Below, piece after piece: positions 675 to 16,758 of a stretch of 16,823 bases of DNA; within the stretch, counting starts at the first letter, position 1; each line of letters begins with the position of its first letter. Source of the DNA: Candidatus Hadarchaeota archaeon (GTDB taxonomy: Archaea; CAYQAE01; CAYVLA01); assembly GCA_964621445.1 (NCBI GenBank), contig CAZUNO010000041.1, forward strand, positions 1 to 16,823, given 5' to 3'. The notes below the pieces were generated by a model. That model saw only the letters and a program-made list of their open reading frames with translations, was not told the origin of the DNA and did not search any database. Position numbers and translations under genes: made by a program.

Positions 675-859
675 ATGATCACCACAATTACGGTGAAGGA
701 GAGGACACGGAGGAAGCTTCAGCAACTCAAGGAGCGGAAACCGTACCACTCCTTTGATCACCTATTGGAGATGGAAGAAAAGGACTGCCCGGCTGCAGAG
801 ATATCAGTATGGGCTTGGCGCCATCAAGATTTACGTTTCGGGCAGGGAGACCGCTATGA
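675..859 (+). pseudogene. VapB-type (RHH) antitoxin pseudogene
   Basis: The first ~33 codons MITTITVKERTRRKLQQLKERKPYHSFDHLLEM match 6184..6378 (MPTTITVKEKTRRKLQELKKRKGSPSYDRLLED). Similarity is then lost. ATGA at 856-859 mirrors the ATGA antitoxin/toxin overlap at 6375-6378. Confidence 0.75.
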
Positions 860-1834: not shown

Positions 1835-1842
1835 GGAGGTGA
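1835..1842 (+). promoter_or_regulatory. Shine-Dalgarno site of the tasA-like gene
   Basis: GGAGGTGA ends 7 nt before the ATG at 1850. Confidence 0.8.
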
Positions 1843-1849
1843 TAAAAAA

Positions 1850-2527
1850 ATGAAAATGAGAATAGCGACAAACCTGTTGATAATGGTTATAGCAGCAGCA
1901 ATGATCGGAGGATCACTAGCCAACTTCCACGACAGCGAGGTCTGCGCAGGTAACACGTTCACCGCAGGGTCACTCGACCTAGAAGTTAACGGTCAGAGCG
2001 GTGTCTGCGTACCGTGGACCAGCGCAAGCAACATGGCTCCAGGAAATACCTATTTCTCTGGATTCAAGACGCTCGCCAACGCTGGAACCATTGATGGAGA
2101 ACTCAACGTCACCATCCAGAACCTAATGTGCCACGAGAACGGCGTGCTTCCACCCGAAGCAGCAGCAGGAGACAGCGTGGGAACACAGCTGGACCCGGAC
2201 GGATTCAGCCAAGAGGGAGGCTACGGAGAACTCTGGGACCAGATAACGTTCAGCCTCGTCATAGACGATGGAGACGGAGTTAGAAACTGGAAGGACACAA
2301 CTATGTATCTATACCCAGACGAATCAGGGTATTACAGCATACCCGTTGATAGCCCGATACAGCTTGATAGCGACTTCCAAGCAGGAGAATCCATGGACTT
2401 TGGCATAGAAGTCACATTCATCGATGACCAGAACACAGCTTATGGATGGATACTTGACGGTGTGCCGAACAACGCAGCCATGGGTGACAGCATCAGTCTG
2501 GATCTCAACTTCCAGTTGACGCAGTAA
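1850..2527 (+). CDS. TasA/CalY (camelysin, M73)-family secreted fibre subunit with SipW-class signal peptide
   Basis: Basic N-region and hydrophobic stretch, then GGSLA|NFHDSEVCAGNTFTAGSLDL, matching the SipW-cognate motif (T-x-A|x-F-x-D-x-E...N-T-F-x-A-G-T-L-D-L). NMAPG, NAGTIDG and a C-terminal N-x-x-x-G-D-S...F-x-L-x-Q are also TasA/CalY-like. Adjacent to sipW. Confidence 0.88.
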   Translation: MKMRIATNLLIMVIAAAMIGGSLANFHDSEVCAGNTFTAGSLDLEVNGQSGVCVPWTSASNMAPGNTYFSGFKTLANAGTIDGELNVTIQNLMCHENGVLPPEAAAGDSVGTQLDPDGFSQEGGYGELWDQITFSLVIDDGDGVRNWKDTTMYLYPDESGYYSIPVDSPIQLDSDFQAGESMDFGIEVTFIDDQNTAYGWILDGVPNNAAMGDSISLDLNFQLTQ

Positions 2528-2534
2528 ATCTAAA

Positions 2535-2551
2535 TTTTTTCTTTTTTTCTT
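2535..2551 (+). terminator. Archaeal-type T-tract terminator after the tasA-like gene
   Basis: TTTTTTCTTTTTTTCTT begins 8 nt after the stop codon. Confidence 0.6.
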
Positions 2552-2603
2552 AACTCTCCGATAGCAGGTGGAGACATCCCCTGCCGGGAAAGAGGTAGAA
2601 GAA

Positions 2604-3224
2604 ATGGACAGACAGGAACTAACAGAGGCCATTATAACAACGGTGGTGAGCATAATCACCGTGATAACCGTAATCTGTGCAGCCCCAGAAATAGTAGGAT
2701 CAAACGGAGCATGGGTCTGCTACGGGCAGTCAATGGAACCCACAATAATGATGGGAGACATGATACTCAGCAAAGAAACACCCCCAAGCCAAATAGAGAT
2801 AGGAGACATCATCTTCTTCAAATACAAAGACAGCATCATCGGACACAGAGTAATAGAGGAATCAGACGACAACTTCAAAACCAAGGGAGACAACAGCGAA
2901 CCAGACCCCTGGATCGTACCCGGAAAAGCCGTGATCGGAACATACAGAACGAGGATACCCTACTTCGGATACCTAGTCCACTTCATCAAGAGCAAATGGT
3001 TCTGTGTATTCGCATCCCTCATAGGAGGATACCTAATGCTAATAGCAGGATACGACACCTACACAATCATCAAAGGAACCAAGAAAGCAGCAGAAACCAC
3101 AGCCAGAAAAACAAAAGAAGGATACGACTGGCTCAAAAGACTTGTAACACACTACCATTACAGGGGAGAATGGTGGAGAGGCTGGTTATGGGAATTCCCA
3201 AAATGTAAACTTGGGCGAGAATGA
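2604..3224 (+). CDS. sipW: Signal peptidase I, SipW/S26B (ER/archaeal-type)
   Basis: Catalytic Ser box GQSMEPTIMMGD, His box IGHRV and KTKGDN..PD, with N- and C-terminal TM helices and RIPYFGY. ATG 2604 has GAGGT upstream; the ORF track start at GTG 2568 is an alternative. Confidence 0.9.
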   Translation: MDRQELTEAIITTVVSIITVITVICAAPEIVGSNGAWVCYGQSMEPTIMMGDMILSKETPPSQIEIGDIIFFKYKDSIIGHRVIEESDDNFKTKGDNSEPDPWIVPGKAVIGTYRTRIPYFGYLVHFIKSKWFCVFASLIGGYLMLIAGYDTYTIIKGTKKAAETTARKTKEGYDWLKRLVTHYHYRGEWWRGWLWEFPKCKLGRE

Positions 3225-3225
3225 A

Positions 3226-3924
3226 ATGCTGGTAGAAGAGGTACTCAACAGCTTAAAAGCATTAGGAGCACACCAACTCCAAAGTTCAACGGAAATTGCC
3301 CGAGAGGCTTATGCAACAGCAAGAATCGCGCTACGAATACCGATAGGAATAATAAGACAAATAGAAACGCAGCAAGAGATAATTCTCCTGGCGGCAATAA
3401 CCGCGACGGCAATAGCATTAACAACGCTCATATACACCAAAGCGGACAAGAAGACCAAGAGGCTGTCTCCTTTACTGATATCTTCTATGCTTATATTCTC
3501 AGCAATCTGGATAGGGGGATTTAACGCAAAATTCACAGACAGGGAAACACGTGCAAACACCTTCACAGCCGGGACAAACTTCCTGAAGTACACCATCCAT
3601 GGGGGTAAGGCAACATATACGGACCCCAACCAGAACAGGACGCTGGGCTGGATACGAAACGATCACATCGGAAGGAACCTGGAGATTGAGGACATACAAA
3701 TCTCGTCATTCAATCCTGAATGGACTACCGACCTCTGGGCATCGGAAACAAACTCCGAGGCATCGGACGGCGAACCTAGAAATACTACCATAGGACCCAG
3801 CGAAAAGAGATGGATATGGATGAGAACCACGGCCCCCAACGGAGACTACCAAGATGTCAAAGTGGCATTGACCGTGAATAGTACTCATATCGATTTACCG
3901 GCCAATATTAGTGTGGATCGTTGA
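3226..3924 (+). CDS. Second SipW-class substrate: membrane-tethered minor fibre/accessory subunit
   Basis: Two hydrophobic segments are followed by IGGFNA|KFTDRETRANTFTAGT, an internal SipW-type cleavage motif. The beta-rich C-terminal domain has four N-x-S/T sequons (NRT, NTT, NST, NIS). ATG 3226 lies 1 nt after the sipW stop. Confidence 0.75.
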   Translation: MLVEEVLNSLKALGAHQLQSSTEIAREAYATARIALRIPIGIIRQIETQQEIILLAAITATAIALTTLIYTKADKKTKRLSPLLISSMLIFSAIWIGGFNAKFTDRETRANTFTAGTNFLKYTIHGGKATYTDPNQNRTLGWIRNDHIGRNLEIEDIQISSFNPEWTTDLWASETNSEASDGEPRNTTIGPSEKRWIWMRTTAPNGDYQDVKVALTVNSTHIDLPANISVDR

Positions 3925-4189
3925 AAACCTGAGATTATGGATTCCAATTTATTTATCCCTCCAGTTTATCCCAATAGGAAATCCTTTTTGACCCGCAAAT
4001 ACCAGAATCGGGCCCCCGAGCCTCTTCCTTCATACAGGCATTATTGGGCCACGACTCCCTGTAGACCACCCAGATATACAGCCCCATACCCAACCAAAAG
4101 CTGCTCCAAGATATCCGGCAAACCGTCCCTGTGAACTCCGCTCCCAAATATTGGTCCCTCGGCATCGCGGCAATCTCTTGGCAATCTGA

Positions 4190-4530: not shown

Positions 4531-4929
4531 ATGAGGTTCGTCGACACCAATATCTTCATCTATGCGATAACCGCCCACCCGCGCTTCGGTGAGGTTTCAA
4601 GAGAGATCCTGAAACGCATAGAGAGGCAGGAGAAAGCAGCAACATCGACACTCGTACTTTGCGAGGTTGCCTGGGTGCTAGAGGCGATGGGCAGGGAAGG
4701 AGAGATCAGGAACGTTCTAGAGAAGATACTGTCCTACAGGAATCTGGATATCCTGGGATTCGGGGACAGGGAACTCATCATGGGGGCAAGTAACATGGCA
4801 TCAAAGGGGATGGATTTCAATGATGGTGTCAATATGGCCATAATGATGAGGGAGGGGATATCCGAGGTCTATTCCAATGACTCCAAACATTTCGATGATG
4901 TCGATTCCATCAAGATGCTCTTCGAATGA
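4531..4929 (+). CDS. vapC: VapC PIN-domain ribonuclease toxin
   Basis: Acidic tetrad intact: FVDTN, LCEV, DFNDG, YSNDSKHFD. Confidence 0.93.
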   Translation: MRFVDTNIFIYAITAHPRFGEVSREILKRIERQEKAATSTLVLCEVAWVLEAMGREGEIRNVLEKILSYRNLDILGFGDRELIMGASNMASKGMDFNDGVNMAIMMREGISEVYSNDSKHFDDVDSIKMLFE

Positions 4930-5383
4930 CGGAACACTGGAATGCTCCCTTCGAGTTCGAGAAGGCCATCAGAGCTGCTTATTCGGATGTAACGGCAGAA
5001 ACATGTTAACCTTCTCAAACCGATCCAACTTCTCCCTACGGAAAGGTCGTCGTACATGCCTGTGCTGCGATATAAGCCCCAATTCCCTGGAAATAAGACT
5101 TCAAAAAGCTAGCGAGCTAACGAAACCAAATAATGGAATCAGCCTACTTGAACCAGGCATCATCCATTCTTACGGTTCCCTGGTCGACACTGACTCCAAA
5201 TCTATGTCTTCCCAAACTCTCTGGTGAGCAAAATTCGTCTGCCCGAATCATTTACTCACGCCGCTGCAAAATCGATCCTCTTTCTGTCACCTGATTATAC
5301 AGAAACCGGGGGAGTCCGGACTTAGCTAAATCGTCTCGGCAAAATCTATCAGTATCAAAAGCTACTCGTACTTTGGTGTATTA

Positions 5384-5655
5384 GTGTAAACAGTCAGAAT
5401 AGGGGAGAGACAAAAAAAAGACTCCAGAAACTCCTAGCCAGGCGATTCATGGAACGTGACAAGAAGATAACATTTCAAGAAGCCCTAAGCAAGAGCGTGG
5501 ACCACGCTATAGATGACGATGAATATATCCAGGACCTACTCGGCACCCAGCCTCTCGAGGAGGAATATGCCTGGCGAATGCTGGATAAACCAAGGCATAC
5601 GGGGATAAAGGACCTATCCAGCGATATCGATAAGTGGCTATACGAGGTATCATAA
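5384..5655 (+). pseudogene. RHH antitoxin, 5' end disrupted
   Basis: GTG-TAA-ACA-GTC-AGA-ATA-GGG-GAG followed by a 1-nt deletion near 5408 reconstructs M(K)TVRIGE(E)TKKRLQKLLARRFMERDKKITFQEAL...DLSSDIDKWLYEVS. The DLS-x-x-ID-x-x-LY tail is typical of archaeal VapB. The 5449 ORF is the remaining C-terminal part. Confidence 0.7.
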
Positions 5656-6062
5656 TGTCCACCTTTCTAGATACCGAAGTTCTGGTAGCCGCCAGAAATG
5701 CCGACGATGAAAAACATGGCAGGGTCAAGGAGCTGGTAAGGTCGGGCCTGACCTGGGAACATGGCTTTGCATACACCTCGCACTATGTCCTGGATGAAGC
5801 GGTTACCCTGATGCTGGTGAGAACCGGAAGGCATGACTTGGCAGTAGATGTAGGCGATTTCATCCTCCGCTGCGATTGAATAACAAAATTATCAGCCTCC
5901 AGAGACGACTTCAACCATGCCTGGGAGAAATTTATGACCCTCCAAAAGGAGTCCCTGAGCTTCACGGACTACACCTCCCTGGTGCTTATGGAAAGGAACC
6001 AAATTGAGGAAATCCTGAGCTTTAGCCCAGGCTTCGATGCACTAGTTGCCAGACGCTATTAA
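5655..6062 (+). pseudogene. vapC: VapC PIN toxin with internal TGA
   Basis: MSTFLDTEVLVA...YVLDEAVT...ILRCD*(5877-5879)ITKLSASRDDFNHAWEKFMTLQKESLSFTDYTSLVLMERNQIEEILSFSPGFDALVARRY*. The frame continues past the stop. The last catalytic Asp (SFD) reads SFS. TAATG overlap with the antitoxin. Confidence 0.88.
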
Positions 6063-6146: not shown

Positions 6147-6183
6147 TGAAACCTTTATCAATATTAATTGCAATTGTAATTAT
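6147..6183 (+). promoter_or_regulatory. BRE/TATA-like promoter plus palindromic operator of vapBC (probably leaderless mRNA)
   Basis: GAAACCTTTATCAA lies about 25-35 nt upstream of ATG 6184 and is followed by the 21-bp element shared with 653-673. No SD is present. Confidence 0.65.
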
Positions 6184-6378
6184 ATGCCGACGACGATCAC
6201 AGTCAAGGAGAAAACGCGAAGAAAACTTCAGGAACTCAAGAAGAGAAAGGGTTCCCCATCCTATGATCGCCTGCTAGAAGATATGGCAGATCGCGAACTC
6301 AAAATGAGGGACTCTCTCTTCGGTAAAACCAAGGGGCTTTCCAAGAATTTCAAAAGGGAACACGAGGATAGAGCATGA
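6184..6378 (+). CDS. vapB: VapB-type RHH antitoxin
   Basis: TTITV..TRRKL..LK....SYD.LL pattern, SLFG...F.REHEDR tail, and ATGA overlap with the PIN gene. Confidence 0.88.
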   Translation: MPTTITVKEKTRRKLQELKKRKGSPSYDRLLEDMADRELKMRDSLFGKTKGLSKNFKREHEDRA

Positions 6379-6773
6379 GAATCCTCTTCGACACCTACGC
6401 CTGGATCGAATACCTTGAGGGGTCGAAAGAAGGAGAGATGGTTAGAAGTCTGCTCCAGGAAGAAGGAAACGAAATCTATACCTCAACCCTTTCGATCGCC
6501 GAGCTTTCCGACGCCTTCCACCGGGGCGGCATGGAGACCGATCTAGAATGGAGCGAGATACAGAACTTCATAGAACTAAACTCCATACTGGAATCACTGA
6601 ACGCTGGGCAGATGGCACGTGCAGGCAAGGTCAAGGTCGAGAAGCGCCGGGAAAGGAAAGGGTTTGGACTTATGGATGCCATAATACTGGCCACCTCAAG
6701 AAAACTGGATTCCAAGCTCCTCACCGGTGACCCGCATCTTATCCATGAGCCAAACTCTATCCCTCTGCTTTGA
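6375..6773 (+). CDS. vapC: VapC PIN-domain ribonuclease toxin
   Basis: LFDTYAWIEY, SIAEL, GLMDAIILAT and LLTGDPH: acidic tetrad intact. Confidence 0.93.
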   Translation: MRILFDTYAWIEYLEGSKEGEMVRSLLQEEGNEIYTSTLSIAELSDAFHRGGMETDLEWSEIQNFIELNSILESLNAGQMARAGKVKVEKRRERKGFGLMDAIILATSRKLDSKLLTGDPHLIHEPNSIPLL

Positions 6774-6782
6774 CGGTAAAAA

Positions 6783-7092
6783 AGATACTGAACGTATAGA
6801 GAAACAAGAAAATGCAGCCACATCAAACCTCATCCTTTGTGAGGTGGCCTGGGTGCTGGAGGACATGGGCAAGCAAGGAGAGGCCAGAAACGCTCTAAAG
6901 AAGCTAATATCCTACCGAGATAGGGAGAGAGGAAAATTCATCATGGAAGCAACCAACATGCCAGCAAAACGGATGGACTACAACGACGGTGTCAACCTGG
7001 CCGTAATGATGAGGGAGGGGATATCCGAGGCCTACACGAATGATACCAAGCATCCCGGTGGTGTGGATTTTCTCAAGCCTATCTTTGAATAA
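6783..7092 (+). pseudogene. 5'-truncated paralog of the VapC at 4531..4929
   Basis: RIEKQENAATSNLILCEVAWVLEDMGKQGE...DYNDGVNLAVMMREGISEAYTNDTKH aligns to 4604-4929. It lacks the first ~24 codons including the first catalytic Asp and has a ~5-codon internal deletion. Confidence 0.88.
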
Positions 7093-7102
7093 CTGAACAC
7101 CT

Positions 7103-7628: not shown

Positions 7629-7709
7629 GTCGTCATAATAGCCAACATGCTTAGAAACGGGGTGAAAAGAATCGTCGCCGATAACGTAAAGGACTTCTCT
7701 CTCCACTAG
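7629..7709 (+). pseudogene. C-terminal remnant of another PIN/VapC gene
   Basis: VVIIANMLRNGVKRIVADNVKDFSLH* resembles the PIN C-terminal D-x-x-I-x-A-x-M-L-x-N-G-V-x-x-I-x-T-x-N-x-x-D-F motif. The upstream sequence is degraded. Confidence 0.6.
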
Positions 7710-8347
7710 CATCGAGATAATCGTGTCTGTGAAAGAGATGAATTTTTGCCTTGGTTTTTTAGGGGTTTTAAGTTGGGGAAATCTTCAGTGGTTAGAATAG
7801 AGGCAAAACTAACATTATTTTCCCTAAGCAGGTCCTTTGCACCTTCCTCCCTATCCACAATAGCAATGGCTTTTATGATTTCAGCGCCGAATTTGTCTAC
7901 TTCTTTAGCCGTGCTCAGAAGTGATGAGCCAGTTGTGGTGACATCATCAACTAATAAAACCCGGTTATTGGTCTGGATCGGTCCTTCAACAAGATTATCC
8001 GTGCCATGATTCTTTACCTCTTTTCTTACATAGAAAGATTTGACTGAACTATCATGACTTTGAAAAGCTTCCAGGGCAGTAGCAACTGCAATTGGAATTG
8101 CGCCTGTTTCCAGTCCTCCGATAGCATCAACCTTAAGATCCCTAACCTGTTTGGCAATGATTTTAGCAATGATGAGAAGACTATTGGGATCCAGAATAAT
8201 AGGCTTCAAATCGAAAAAATAATTGCTATGCTTTCCCGAGCTTAACAAAAAAGAACCCGTCTTAAGCCCTTTTTCAAGAACCAGATTTCTTAGAAGATTG
8301 ACATAATCGGTTTCCGGAATATCATTTCTAGACTTGGTGACATTCAA
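7706..8347 (-). CDS. pyrE: Orotate phosphoribosyltransferase
   Basis: GSFLLSSGKHSNYFFDLK, the VRKEVKNHGT flexible loop, the PRPP-binding VLLVDDVTTTGSS and IVDREEGA. TTG start with GGAGGG SD. Confidence 0.93.
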   Translation of the reverse strand: MNVTKSRNDIPETDYVNLLRNLVLEKGLKTGSFLLSSGKHSNYFFDLKPIILDPNSLLIIAKIIAKQVRDLKVDAIGGLETGAIPIAVATALEAFQSHDSSVKSFYVRKEVKNHGTDNLVEGPIQTNNRVLLVDDVTTTGSSLLSTAKEVDKFGAEIIKAIAIVDREEGAKDLLRENNVSFASILTTEDFPNLKPLKNQGKNSSLSQTRLSRC

Positions 8348-12453: not shown

Positions 12454-13065
12454 CTAAATACTTTCTACAGTTTCCTTGAAGGCGCCTACACTATTGTCAA
12501 GTCCTCTAACGCTTTCCTGGAGGGACTTTACCGCAAATAAAACTTCGGCAAAACTCATGCCTTTCATCTCCATCAGGTACGAGATATCCTCAGATCTAAA
12601 GTCGAACTGATTCTGATAATCGCCGGAGTAACCTCGGCTTGCCTGGGTATCAGTTCTCGAGAACTCAACTGTGCAGAACAGTTCTCCATAACTCATAGTA
12701 ACTGGACGGTTAGTAGTATTAAAAAGAGACAAGCTGAGGATGCCGTGAAAACCCGGGTCAATCTGAGGCCCCGAAAACATAATCAACCCCTTCCTTGTGA
12801 ACTTTGACCTCAAGCCCATTCGGCCGCAAATACCTTGAGACAGATGGAGTTGCTCCAGCGTCTGAACTGCGACGAACTCCGAGCGATCTATGGTGATAAA
12901 CCCATCATCTTCCGTCAAAGGTATTACTTTATCTTTGAAGGCCTTGCGACCGAGTCTGAGGTCCACGGACGCAGGCTGAAGTTGAGTCTCCTTGTTAATT
13001 TCTAAAGTTATCCTTATCTCGCCTTTCCTCATGGTTTCTTCCAGGTCCGTGTCAGACATAACCAA
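12454..13065 (-). CDS. dCTP deaminase/dUTPase trimeric-fold protein with C-terminal coiled coil (3' end damaged)
   Basis: QPASVDLRLG, GLRSKFTRKGL, QIDPGFHG and Y.G.YQ.Q motifs. The deaminase catalytic Glu position reads Ser, so dcd is not assigned. Confidence 0.85.
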   Translation of the reverse strand: MVMSDTDLEETMRKGEIRITLEINKETQLQPASVDLRLGRKAFKDKVIPLTEDDGFITIDRSEFVAVQTLEQLHLSQGICGRMGLRSKFTRKGLIMFSGPQIDPGFHGILSLSLFNTTNRPVTMSYGELFCTVEFSRTDTQASRGYSGDYQNQFDFRSEDISYLMEMKGMSFAEVLFAVKSLQESVRGLDNSVGAFKETVESI

Positions 13066-13779: not shown

Positions 13780-14016
13780 CCCACTGCCTGGTTTGGGCGT
13801 TTAATTGATAACTATTAATCCTGCATTTATGACAAGCTGGTTATATAAACAAGGAAATCGATGTTTCCCCCCGTAAATTAACTTGTTTACCTTTCCCCTA
13901 ATTTCCCCTCCCTGGGCTCTGAACATCATTTTGGAACCGACTTCTTTTTTCCTAATATCCCGATCATGGAGGCTCAAGCAAAGGAAATTGTCTTGTCGAG
14001 CAACTGCTAATTCGAG

Positions 14017-15215
14017 AAGCCTGCGCCGGATCATGAGGGACCAGAGCAGGAAACCGCAGTCCATGAAGGTCTCGGTCACCGCCAGCCACTCGATGATGTA
14101 GATCCAGAGGAGTGTACGGTTCTTTACCTGGACCGCCTCCTCCTCGGCCTCCTTCAGGATCTGGTCCACCTCGTTATAGGTTTCCAGGACCTCCTCGAAT
14201 CGCTGGTCCAGGTACTGAGGAAGGGCACTGGCCGTGGCCCGGTCCAGCTCGTCGATTCTCTTGGTAATGGTATCGGTGTTGGCCCCGAAGGACTCGCAGA
14301 ACTCGAGCAGGGCCAGTAAAAGGGACCTCCTGGTCCCCGTCTCCAGTATCTTCCCCCTCGCGGCGTGTACCAGGGCGATGTCCTGGGGCACCCGTCGACG
14401 GTCCAGATAGATCATCATGTTTCCCACGTAGTCGTAGGCGTATTCCCACCTGCTCCCGAAGATCTCCACCAGGCGGCAGGACTCGCTGGTCAGGGCGAAT
14501 GTCCTGGCACCGTTGGGCAGCTCCCAGTCCACCATCAAGGGGTCGTTCCCCGATCCGGTGATCACGTGGGCCAGCTGTCGCGCTCCGGGCTTGACCTTCA
14601 CGATATTGTGGTGCCATATGGCCCCCGAGAGGGCCGGATCCCCGGTGTTCCAGGGATGCTGGACATGAACTCGTTTTCAGGCTCGTCTATCACCAGCAGC
14701 TGTAACGGGGAGTCATCCCATTGGCCGATAACGTCCTCCGTGGGGAGCAGTTTGCCCACCGAGGTCTCACCCCACGGCGAGTACCCAGCGGAACCGCCGA
14801 AGGACTGCCAGCCCCCGCACATAACCATTCCCAGCTCCCTCTCGGAGACCCCCCGGGCCAGCTTGTCGATGTGGGGGGACACGGCGTGGACGTTGGCCTC
14901 GAAGAGCACTATGACATCGTAGTTTGCGGAGAGGTCGCTCAGGGACCTGGGCATATATAGCCTGACCATCCTGTGTACATCGGCGGTGGTCATGGCGGCC
15001 ATGGGGCCGTAGGCCATGAAGTCCCGGATGGTGGCCTGGACGAAGGTCATGCTGAACATGGGGTCGGATCGCATCATCCAAAAAGGCCTGGATCGCGCCA
15101 CGCAGCCCACGTACAAAACACCGACCTGGCCGTTTTCCAGGGCCTGGATCCCCTCGGGTATAAGAAGAGCTAGGAGGGCCAGGAATAGAATGGTTTGTAA
15201 ACGGCTGGGGCACAA
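14017..15215 (-). pseudogene. Frameshifted secreted/membrane protein with class I glutamine amidotransferase-like (DUF1355-like) domain
   Basis: Signal peptide, YDVIVL and GMVMCGGWQSFGG...LLP motifs. A 1-nt deletion at 14653-14655 joins ...MSSIP to WNTGDPALSGAIWHHNIVKVKPGA.... The C-terminal TM contains charged residues (ETFMDCG) and ends MIRRRL. The GC-rich tract ends near 14017. Confidence 0.7.
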
Positions 15216-15368: not shown

Positions 15369-15788
15369 TTACTCTAATGCAATCTTTCCTTTTTGCAATA
15401 GATAGTAACCATTTCCAGTTGTAATATAGGTCAGCTTTACAATTTCTTGTAGAGCACCGTAGCATGAATCGTTATGTTCAATACGTCCAGCAAGGCTGTC
15501 CAAAGCAGCCGAAAGTTTATCGAAGAAATCTGAAGGAAGCACAATAGTCTTATCCCCACCTCTAATGATGTTCGTTCTATTCTTTATTGTATTATAGGCC
15601 CCATGTAGAATGAAATCTGTAGTTACAAGTTCCAAATCCCACCCTTCATTTAAGGCCCTATTGGTTACTCCATAAGCTGCGCTAAAAAAATACAACTTTC
15701 TATTCATTTCAACTTCTTGTCTCATCTTCTTTGCAGCAAAGTGAAGCTCTTCGACAATTCTGTTTCTTAATTCATCTGATATATCCAT
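15369..15788 (-). CDS. Hypothetical alpha-helical protein (139 aa), third gene of the PIN module
   Basis: ATG 15788 has a GGGGAG SD and overlaps the upstream gene by 17 nt. Motifs KLYFFSAAYG and TTGNGYYL. T-tract downstream. Confidence 0.8.
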   Translation of the reverse strand: MDISDELRNRIVEELHFAAKKMRQEVEMNRKLYFFSAAYGVTNRALNEGWDLELVTTDFILHGAYNTIKNRTNIIRGGDKTIVLPSDFFDKLSAALDSLAGRIEHNDSCYGALQEIVKLTYITTGNGYYLLQKGKIALE

Positions 15789-16170
15789 ACGACTCCCCAA
15801 CCGCAGTTGTGTGATTCTTTTCTTGAATAGATACTGAATCCTCACTTTCACCAATAGAATGTGGGTAATTGACTGAAAAACGCTCCTCATTAATATAAAA
15901 AGAACCTGAGATACCTTCTATTGATGGATAGGCTGATTCATTAGACTCCTTTTGGAGCCTTGACCATAACTCCGTTTCAGCCTCCTTCAATATCCGTCTC
16001 GCTTCCTTTACCTCTCTTCCCGAAGGCACATGATCATAATCATCCAGTAGATTTTGAACTTGTTCAAGGTTTAGATCCAGGCGCTCCGCAGCCTCTGCAT
16101 AAGTAATATCCGAACGTACTAGTTGGGCAAGGACCTCTTTTACTCTTTCATCCATTTCCGTATTGGGCAC
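15772..16170 (-). CDS. HTH-containing antitoxin-like protein (UPF0175-like N-terminus) with C-terminal extension
   Basis: DITYAEAAERLDLNLEQVQNLL HTH. The GTG start directly follows the PIN stop, with SD GGAGGT. Ser/Glu-rich tail. Confidence 0.75.
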   Translation of the reverse strand: MPNTEMDERVKEVLAQLVRSDITYAEAAERLDLNLEQVQNLLDDYDHVPSGREVKEARRILKEAETELWSRLQKESNESAYPSIEGISGSFYINEERFSVNYPHSIGESEDSVSIQEKNHTTAVGESYGYIR

Positions 16171-16758
16171 CTAAAGACCTCCTAATCTATCGATAATTGG
16201 ATCTTTGTAATCCTGAAACTTCTCCTGCGCGTCATCCACTAACCATTGGGATTCCTTAATACCTTTAACTATGTTCTCAATCTCATCGTACTTGAAGATA
16301 TTTAGAGAAATAACTATGAAATCACGAAGGCTGATTATGTCCCTGCTTACTAAATACGAAATCAGTTGTATCGGCGAAAACGGTCTAAGCTTTGATCCCC
16401 AAGCATCCCCAAAATCCCCCACTGCCCTCACCAGTGTAGTGTCATTAGTAACCAAATAATCACAATCGGCATCAAGAGCGGTGATGAATGCATGATGATC
16501 TTTTCTCCCTGCTACTTTTATATTTCGCTCTCTCAGTTGTTTCCTAAATTCGATGAATCTTTCCGGTTTTGAGCGAGGCACTTTATTAAGTGAAGCTGGA
16601 GGGTCCCAACCTGAAACCTCATCAATATTAACCTCGCACATAATACACTCTTCTCCATCCTCTGTCAATAGTTCAATTACCTTATTTTGGAGATTGTCAA
16701 ACTTATGTTCGATTTTCTTATAGGCTATGATTGATTGGGCGTCAAAGGCGAACTTCAT
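16171..16758 (-). CDS. PIN-domain protein with C-terminal helical extension
   Basis: FAFDAQS, NIDEV, KDHHAFITAL and DYLVTND: PIN acidic tetrad present. About 60 extra C-terminal residues. Confidence 0.82.
   Translation of the reverse strand: MKFAFDAQSIIAYKKIEHKFDNLQNKVIELLTEDGEECIMCEVNIDEVSGWDPPASLNKVPRSKPERFIEFRKQLRERNIKVAGRKDHHAFITALDADCDYLVTNDTTLVRAVGDFGDAWGSKLRPFSPIQLISYLVSRDIISLRDFIVISLNIFKYDEIENIVKGIKESQWLVDDAQEKFQDYKDPIIDRLGGL

Follow-up and report, generated by a model that had tools for sequence, protein, structure and literature searches.

A probable TasA-type fibre locus with its own SipW-type peptidase gene in a deep-branching archaeon

Within the Bacillus subtilis tapA-sipW-tasA operon, tapA overlaps sipW, and TapA gives the first strand (PMC9674648, PMC10151520). 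In archaea, the PF12389 family is patchy and widespread (PMC9245690), and genes for TasA- and AbpX-like proteins often adjoin signal peptidase I and other TasA-like genes (PMC12518558). A locus of this kind is described here from an archaeal contig of 16,823 nucleotides (C41), which in its full length is called the window. It consists of three co-oriented open reading frames (ORFs) on the plus strand, spanning positions 1850-3924, which encode a candidate shaft subunit (ORF1), a SipW-type signal peptidase (ORF2) and a putative second substrate of that peptidase (ORF3). The best reading of the locus is most likely a TasA-type extracellular donor-strand fibre, of the biofilm kind, with a SipW of its own.

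Other archaeal fibre systems differ in their gene content. The AbpX loci, described for Pyrodictium abyssi in a 2026 preprint (bioRxiv 10.64898/2026.01.04.697558), comprise a predicted tip, a predicted minor subunit, a peptidase and DUF5305; a peptidase-DUF5305 fusion is also reported there, and archaeal proteins close to bacterial TasA, which are widespread, are called untested. In haloarchaea, processing depends on TafD, a two-domain, four-helix protein with a C-terminal domain of unclear role (PMC11821415). The Pyrobaculum locus has eight genes, AbpB among them, and no dedicated peptidase (PMC9245690). Further context is given in PMC10903470 and PMC10269814.

Three genes and their predicted products

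All three frames are open and intact, as the original prediction had claimed, and the strong Shine-Dalgarno site that it placed ahead of the major subunit is present (Table 1).

Table 1. Features of the fibre locus, its surroundings in the window, and a related gene on contig C45
Feature	Position	Strand	Basis or remark
Antitoxin fragment	696-770		broken
Shine-Dalgarno-like site GGAGGTGA	1835-1842	+	7 bases ahead of ATG 1850
ORF1, TasA/camelysin-family shaft subunit, 225 residues	1850-2527	+	PF12389, TIGR04088, fold match
Putative signal peptide of ORF1 (residues 1-24), with cleavage predicted behind Ala24	1850-1921	+	hydrophobic 5-23
ORF1 putative donor strand and linker, ending NTFTAG	1922-1969	+	aromatic at 2, acidic at 4
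Oligo-T tract	2535-2548	+	11 T in 12, reached nowhere else on the window's plus strand
ORF2, SipW-type (S26B-like) signal peptidase, 206 residues, two membrane helices	2604-3224	+	TIGR02228
ORF3, putative second substrate, 232 residues	3226-3924	+	N-terminal profile, hydrophobicity
ORF3 putative donor strand, K102 to G116	3529-3573	+	22.4 bits on N-terminal profile
Tyrosine integrase 3' end remnant, 80 bases	4031-4110	+	85% identical to broken integrase on contig C61; in-frame stop
PIN-domain (VapC-like) gene	5655-6059		single in-frame TGA at 5877, remaining frame whole
Truncated PIN copy	6790-7089		broken
Split surface protein	13804-15215	-	broken
Third PF12389 gene of the genome, facing a DUF5305 gene	L064:5624-6238 and G000:C45:12735-13674		N-terminal membrane helix, no strand motif

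ORF1 is classed, from its sequence and a predicted model, as a TasA-family subunit and PF12389 member with a TasA-like jelly-roll. It scored 36.3 bits against PF12389 (gathering cut-off 22.5) and 25.5 bits against TIGR04088, the model of the SipW-cognate signal peptide (cut-off 19), so the SipW-class signal assigned to it earlier was recovered. It failed the Bacillus TasA equivalog NF046066 (19.2 against 450 bits). The predicted cleavage site has alanine at P1, as do 119 of 133 relatives with the motif, and the strand begins N-F-H-D. On a profile built from 133 TasA-like N-termini (the motif holders among 186 proteins), ORF1 reached 46.0 bits, the highest score of 3666 genome frames. The mature protein has an isoelectric point (pI) of 4.05 and contains 15.4% D+E. 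Of 218 candidates screened for homology, 39 rows were retained: ORF1 itself, 36 relatives that match over their full length with 35-71% identity, and 2 partial matches; 17 columns of the alignment are invariant, many of them acidic or glycine and situated in insertions. The ORF1 profile matched 6107 representatives at E <= 0.001 and 26 at 1e-30, and ORF1 thus belongs to a small subfamily within a large family. In a quick tree it lies in a 12-row clade (support 99) with proteins of Hadarchaeota and Methanomassiliicoccales.

The ORF1 sequence matched nothing below E 0.098 among solved structures. Its predicted model, based on 37 sequences, is a beta-sandwich with a mean local confidence (pLDDT) of 80. 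Residues 18-43 are unstructured in this monomer model, where the donor strand is of low confidence and forms no strand, as is expected of a donor strand. Three of 500 counted Foldseek matches had E <= 0.001: the TasA fibre, CanA and monomeric TasA, with the TasA fibre 8aur at rank 1 (E 7.2e-5, probability 1.00, TM 0.45). After re-alignment, TasA entries held ranks 1-3 (Z 6.5-6.8 over 138-144 residues, root-mean-square deviation 3.5-4.0). The T tract behind ORF1 is likely a partial terminator favouring the shaft subunit; of 15 other loci that were compared, 5 likewise have 10-11 T in 12 downstream of the shaft gene.

It is improbable that ORF1 is secreted without polymerising, as a camelysin-like protease or a calcium-binding surface protein, and that ORF3 is a mere second SipW client. 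In favour of such a role, PF12389 bears the name of a metallo-endopeptidase family, ORF1 has long conserved acidic insertions that TasA lacks, and the archaeal members of its TasA cluster are called untested in the AbpX preprint (bioRxiv 10.64898/2026.01.04.697558). However, HExxH is absent from ORF1, the strand motif is family-wide and common to ORF3, the top structural matches are fibre subunits, and the gene layout agrees with that of fibre loci.

ORF2 is assigned by sequence as a locus-dedicated SipW-type peptidase, distinct from the housekeeping enzyme. It more probably starts at ATG 2604, which has the better ribosome site (GAGGT at 2592-2596), than at 2568, which would give 218 residues. 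TIGR02228 scored 84.5 bits (cut-off 51.85), completing the family searches proposed for ORF1 and ORF2, in which PF12389, TIGR04088 and TIGR02228 all exceeded their cut-offs; the Bacillus SipW equivalog NF046067 failed at 70.7 bits (cut-off 190). The Ser, His and Asp boxes noticed earlier are there: S43, H81, D96 and D101 sit in the usual motifs, which we take to be catalytic. In a tree, ORF2 groups with locus-linked peptidases and the housekeeping copy (contig C22) falls in a separate clade (split 95/96). Another frame in the ORF2 region, 2711-3208, was taken as a non-coding shadow frame.

For ORF3, ATG 3226, which lies one base past the ORF2 stop, is a likelier start than 3211 (237 residues). 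The protein has a 51-residue N-terminal part, a helix at 52-70, a basic loop (5 K/R, 1 D), a second helix at 80-98, a strand from residue 102 and then a beta-rich domain. A cut is predicted after Ala101; the residues at P1 (Ala) and P2' (Phe) agree with those of cleaved substrates. Since the strand lies behind two helices, ORF3 has no plain N-terminal signal peptide, and no possible start codon (ATG, GTG or TTG) between codons 1 and 88 would give it one. The sequence NTFTAG, said to be shared by ORF1 and ORF3, was found exactly at 1952-1969 and 3556-3573; the two copies agree in 15 of 18 bases and are the only ones among the 6.4 million six-frame codons of the genome. On the N-terminal profile the ORF3 strand ranks third of the 3666 genome frames, behind ORF1 and the shaft protein of a second locus on contig C39 (27 bits), with a background of at most 3.0; its TIGR04088 score, 16.1 bits, is under the cut-off. 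The profile score argues that the donor-strand motif of ORF3 is genuine. The view of ORF3 as a second substrate was therefore borne out as to the motif, while its two-helix layout had been missed.

No ORF3 homologs were found among 277 candidates of 127-406 residues, the TapA family TIGR04087 gave no row up to E 1, Pfam nothing credible for the domain behind the strand, and the host genome and the related loci examined hold no paralog of it. Foldseek gave no match at E <= 0.001 for its fold (best Z 4.2, from a low-confidence model), and two Atlas searches yielded leads of 0.80-0.87 only (DUF11, CARDB and M73-containing clusters). A complex prediction of ORF1 38-225 with ORF3 102-232 scored 0.00 in two runs, in which the partner fold was uncertain and the controls were not folded, so that it speaks neither for nor against the fibre.

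ORF3 might instead stay uncut in the membrane as a base, its tethered strand tying the last ORF1 subunit to the cell, but this is unlikely. The two membrane helices with their basic loop, the lack of another anchor in the locus and the TIGR04088 score below cut-off all suit a base. Against a base, an N-terminal extension blocks TasA fibres, a point for which no paper was found. Moreover, Ala at P1 and Phe at P2' are kept as in cleaved substrates, a candidate anchor of the acceptor type is present on contig C45, and strands of the TasA type use a processed N-terminus (PMC10151520).

Peptidases joined to a putative strand-bearing tip

The survey of gene neighbourhoods covered 28 related loci, 8 from genomes and 20 from metagenomes (one, L034, ends inside the match). 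A complete sipW lies near the shaft gene in 17 of them. Eight of these 17 peptidases are fused to further domains, one stops after a third helix, six stand alone (including those of WWE3 and two Anaerolineae) and two carry a four-helix extension; among the other 11 loci, three are cut by contig ends and eight have no peptidase in the DNA examined. In the fusions, SipW is followed by a helix, a basic loop, a helix, a cleavage site, a strand and a domain. They occur in Hadarchaeota (L019, L021), in unclassified archaea (L025, L026) and in L030, L037, L042 and L045. The tails vary, with an Ig-like Big_3_5 domain in L045 and L019 and other domains elsewhere, and a gene of the DUF5305 type usually lies downstream. 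The four members of the ORF1 clade that have a complete peptidase show either the fusion or a remnant of it. The peptidase that stops directly after its third helix comes from Methanomassiliicoccales (L020:3240-3540) and has a decayed strand motif past the stop.

A search of 351 genomes found a match in 32, and among the 30 loci examined fusions were present in three genomes (G318, G128, G044). In the 1 Mb archaeal genome G318 the peptidase-tip fusion has a tail of at least 325 residues (L070:3-1529). In G128 and G044 (L081:700-2607, L087:730-2631), ten-helix peptidases of the AbpX type carry a C-terminal extension made up of a helix, a cleavage site, a W/E donor-strand motif and, last, a cysteine-rich domain. 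In loci L038, L039 and L065, TasA-like genes stand in tandem arrays of two to five, accompanied by multi-domain strand carriers and by a peptidase that is either four-helix or stand-alone. The host genome itself holds a second TasA-like locus near the start of contig C39 (L006:287-2093), with a shaft gene and a fused peptidase; in its tail, a helix leads to a cleavage site, behind which come a donor strand and an acidic domain of 129 residues.

Of 12 fused proteins, 11 show a cleavage-plus-strand pattern after the last helix. By comparison, it follows 11 of the genome's 2541 membrane segments and is absent from all 7 peptidases with other extensions. The fused sequences include near-duplicates and represent about 7 independent lineages. 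In the literature searched, supplements apart, no description of a peptidase with a cleavable donor-strand tip fused to it came to light; figures S16 and table S3 of the AbpX preprint may show such loci. By its predicted layout, ORF3 is the equivalent of the tail of a fused SipW, by fission or by convergence.

It is very improbable that ORF2 and ORF3 are one fused gene, recently frameshifted or read by programmed frameshifting, in a damaged or recoded locus. In favour of it, the stretch without a stop in the ORF3 frame begins at 3148, 26 codons ahead of the ATG, and fused forms are the rule in the clade of ORF1. A related strain differs by four substitutions in the junction region, two of which are silent in the ORF3 frame only, too few to weigh. 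Against this, contigs from three runs (of one study, one run being perhaps the source sample) span the junction with no indel, and the codon scores at 3144-3204 do not favour the ORF3 frame; on these grounds an assembly error or a frameshift at the junction was rejected. The related strain, read by hand, has a stop in the ORF3 frame just ahead of an ATG in the same register and keeps the SipW frame, and fusion would add a surplus helix to the product and place the strand in the cytoplasm. ORF3 was also rejected as a fragment of the fused peptidases, as a profile comparison gave 2.9% probability and matched the strand only. In the tree, ORF2 branches as the sister of the fused clade and not within it (support 81/79, with one row shortened and three over-long). 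These two results do not establish descent of ORF2 and ORF3 from a fused gene.

Proposed assembly of the fibre

The locus most likely works like Bacillus tapA-sipW-tasA, by analogy of its parts. ORF1 and ORF3 would enter the membrane by the Sec route, as their motifs suggest, and ORF1 would be made in excess, given its strong ribosome site and the T-rich partial terminator downstream. ORF2 would cut ORF1 after Ala24 and ORF3 after Ala101, in both cases behind a small residue two before an aromatic one, and would thereby free their N-terminal strands, as modelled on Bacillus SipW and Haloarcula TafD. The two-helix hairpin would keep ORF3 beside the peptidase until the cut. As with TapA and TasA, the chain would start when ORF3 donates its strand to an ORF1 subunit. 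The strand of each ORF1 would in turn enter the jelly-roll of the next, and the beta domain of ORF3 would form a variable cap at the tip of the fibre. As in AbpX, calcium may be bound by the acidic loops. We consider this division of labour among the three proteins likely, with some reserve.

A membrane stopper could be supplied in trans by the TasA-like gene on contig C45, an acceptor-only anchor candidate prompted by the example of TafF. That gene faces the only DUF5305 gene found in the genome, which is cut by the contig end. The locus does hold a subunit, a SipW and a second substrate; that it is self-contained, as first proposed, is doubtful, with the anchor candidate and DUF5305 on another contig.

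Several points weigh against this scheme. The locus lacks an anchor or DUF5305 gene of its own. The Pfam match of ORF1 is limited to residues 2-82, and in a wide search unrelated jelly-roll and CUB domains, Kremen (Z 6.8) among them, score level with TasA (6.5), so that the ORF1 fold by itself gives the class only. The ORF3 domain has a single-sequence model with pLDDT 50, and both a tip and a minor shaft subunit fit it. A two-helix ORF3 with its N-terminus outside requires that a 51-residue tail cross the membrane without a signal peptide. As to the fusions, the cleavage-plus-strand pattern was derived from the same sequences on which it was scored, and the independent N-terminal profile gives about 8-10 bits for two of nine fused proteins and <=1 or none for the other seven. 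Even so, the family scores, the TasA fold match and the locus-linked SipW make a TasA-type fibre system, as originally predicted, the best reading.

In many archaeal relatives, cutting and initiation would sit in one protein, the SipW-tip fusion, of which the window would be the two-gene equivalent. More tentatively, archaeal fibres of the TasA type might often be started by a polyprotein, in which the peptidase cuts off its own tip behind an internal signal helix and a swappable Ig-like tip follows a fixed strand; ORF3 would then be a detached tip that kept the hairpin for docking. This idea is somewhat less likely than not. If the peptidase does free its own donor-strand domain, fibre nucleation would be hard-wired to processing. 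Such hard-wiring would explain function without a chaperone or usher, and spread from lineage to lineage as two-gene units. The host genome holds both forms, the fused one on C39 and the split one in the window, and thus provides a natural pair for comparing cleavage in cis and in trans.

Genomic setting and place among known systems

The parent genome measures 3.2 Mb and is 96% complete. Its phylum comprises 5 genomes in total, and its ribosomal protein L4 has 45-51% identity to the best named archaeal matches; the host is a deep-branching archaeon. It is probably mat-dwelling: the best holders of the locus sequence are microbial-mat metagenomes of a single study, and no RNA dataset is among the holders listed. 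PF12389, TIGR04088 and the ORF1 profile gave no match in any of the 4 phylum relatives (91-100% complete), and the host genome has three PF12389 genes (window, C39 and C45), which points to horizontal acquisition of the fibre gene kit. The integrase remnant begins 107 bases downstream of ORF3 and possibly marks an old attachment site. Contig C61, which carries the matching integrase, also has close copies of the toxin-antitoxin (TA) genes at window positions 5449 and 6184-6773. No tRNA gene was found in the window, and a sigma-70 promoter scan gave nothing exceeding shuffles.

The description of the surroundings as a TA island with many pseudogenes holds for the setting, and five broken genes were verified (the antitoxin fragment, two PIN genes, the integrase piece and the split surface protein); nine further window genes with Pfam scores over cut-off appear whole. 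With so many intact neighbours, the intactness of the trio says little on selection, for which it had been offered as a sign, and family-level conservation says more.

Other features of the window were noted in passing. Duplicated TA pieces include an upstream box of 34 bases together with an antitoxin start (640-770 and 6150-6270) and a 76-77% copy of a vapC gene without its start (4613-4937 and 6791-7100). A frameshifted PIN gene remnant was suspected by eye at 940-1245, to which Pfam gave no support. The split protein (13801-15215, minus strand) belongs to a large paralogous family of membrane-anchored surface proteins of about 420-450 residues with a weak GATase1-like match, of which the host genome has many whole copies. 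Extra pyrE-like and dCTP-deaminase-like genes lie at 7706-8347 and 12454-13065 (minus strand) and at L006:9406-10044, in stretches of low guanine-plus-cytosine content with uncharacterised neighbours; dCTP deaminases act in phage defence. Of three uncharacterised genes at 15369-16758 (minus strand), one is helix-turn-helix-like and is followed by a 195-residue gene of PIN-like appearance; no family scored over cut-off.

Among described systems, the archaeal bundling pilus (ABP) named in the original prediction did not fit. AbpA shares the superfamily fold of ORF1 (Foldseek E 4.7e-3, Z 5.8) but came only tenth in the fold search, ORF1 being closer to TasA, and nothing points to bipolar bundles. 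In contrast to the Pyrobaculum locus, the window locus has a dedicated peptidase and no 410-residue three-domain partner such as AbpB.

The Tafi fibres of haloarchaea and the taf-like clusters of Thermococcales and Archaeoglobales (PMC11821415, PMC12337348) need a dedicated peptidase for processing, as is proposed here, and join tip, shaft and anchor by strand donation; their DUF5305 partner occurs in loci related to the window. However, the n-region of ORF1 has no RR pair and thus no twin-arginine signal, the DUF1102/Taf subunits are unmatched, and ORF2 has two helices against the four of TafD. The peptidases of TafD layout lack the cleavage-plus-strand pattern (0/7), and a TafG-type DUF5305 is not in the locus.

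AbpX resembles ORF1 in its strand (aromatic at 2, acidic at 4), a pI of about 4 and about 15% D/E, and its loci likewise have a dedicated peptidase and predicted tip and minor subunits. Its peptidases have ten helices and ORF2 two, DUF5305 is absent from the window locus, and the fusion described in the available text of the preprint joins the peptidase to DUF5305 and not to a tip. The locus thus belongs to none of the ABP, AbpX and Tafi systems. The archaeal TasA homologues of the published surveys (PMC9245690, PMC12518558) are likewise patchy PF12389 genes and often have signal peptidase I as a neighbour, although the host here is of a small phylum and a peptidase fused to a strand-bearing tip is not mentioned in the available parts of those papers. 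The probable TasA-type kit does extend to this lineage, as originally suggested, but is of a kind already described for archaea.

The closest counterpart is the tapA-sipW-tasA operon of B. subtilis (TasA PDB 8AUR, 5OF1/5OF2). Both have a PF12389 subunit with a SipW-class signal, a dedicated SipW, and a second substrate that shares the mature N-terminus and abuts sipW. They differ in that ORF1 has 14-19% structural identity to TasA, long acidic insertions and a score far under the cut-off of the TasA equivalog, that ORF3 has one extra membrane helix and no TapA family match, and that the gene order is shaft-sipW-minor. TasA-like genes beside a signal peptidase are already published for archaea, and the two-helix ORF3 and its fused counterpart are the variant part. 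Taken alone, the locus is an ordinary member of a described kind, a compact three-gene example of the archaeal TasA-type kit from a deep-branching host that is suited to expression tests; the wider point is the fusion of peptidase and tip.

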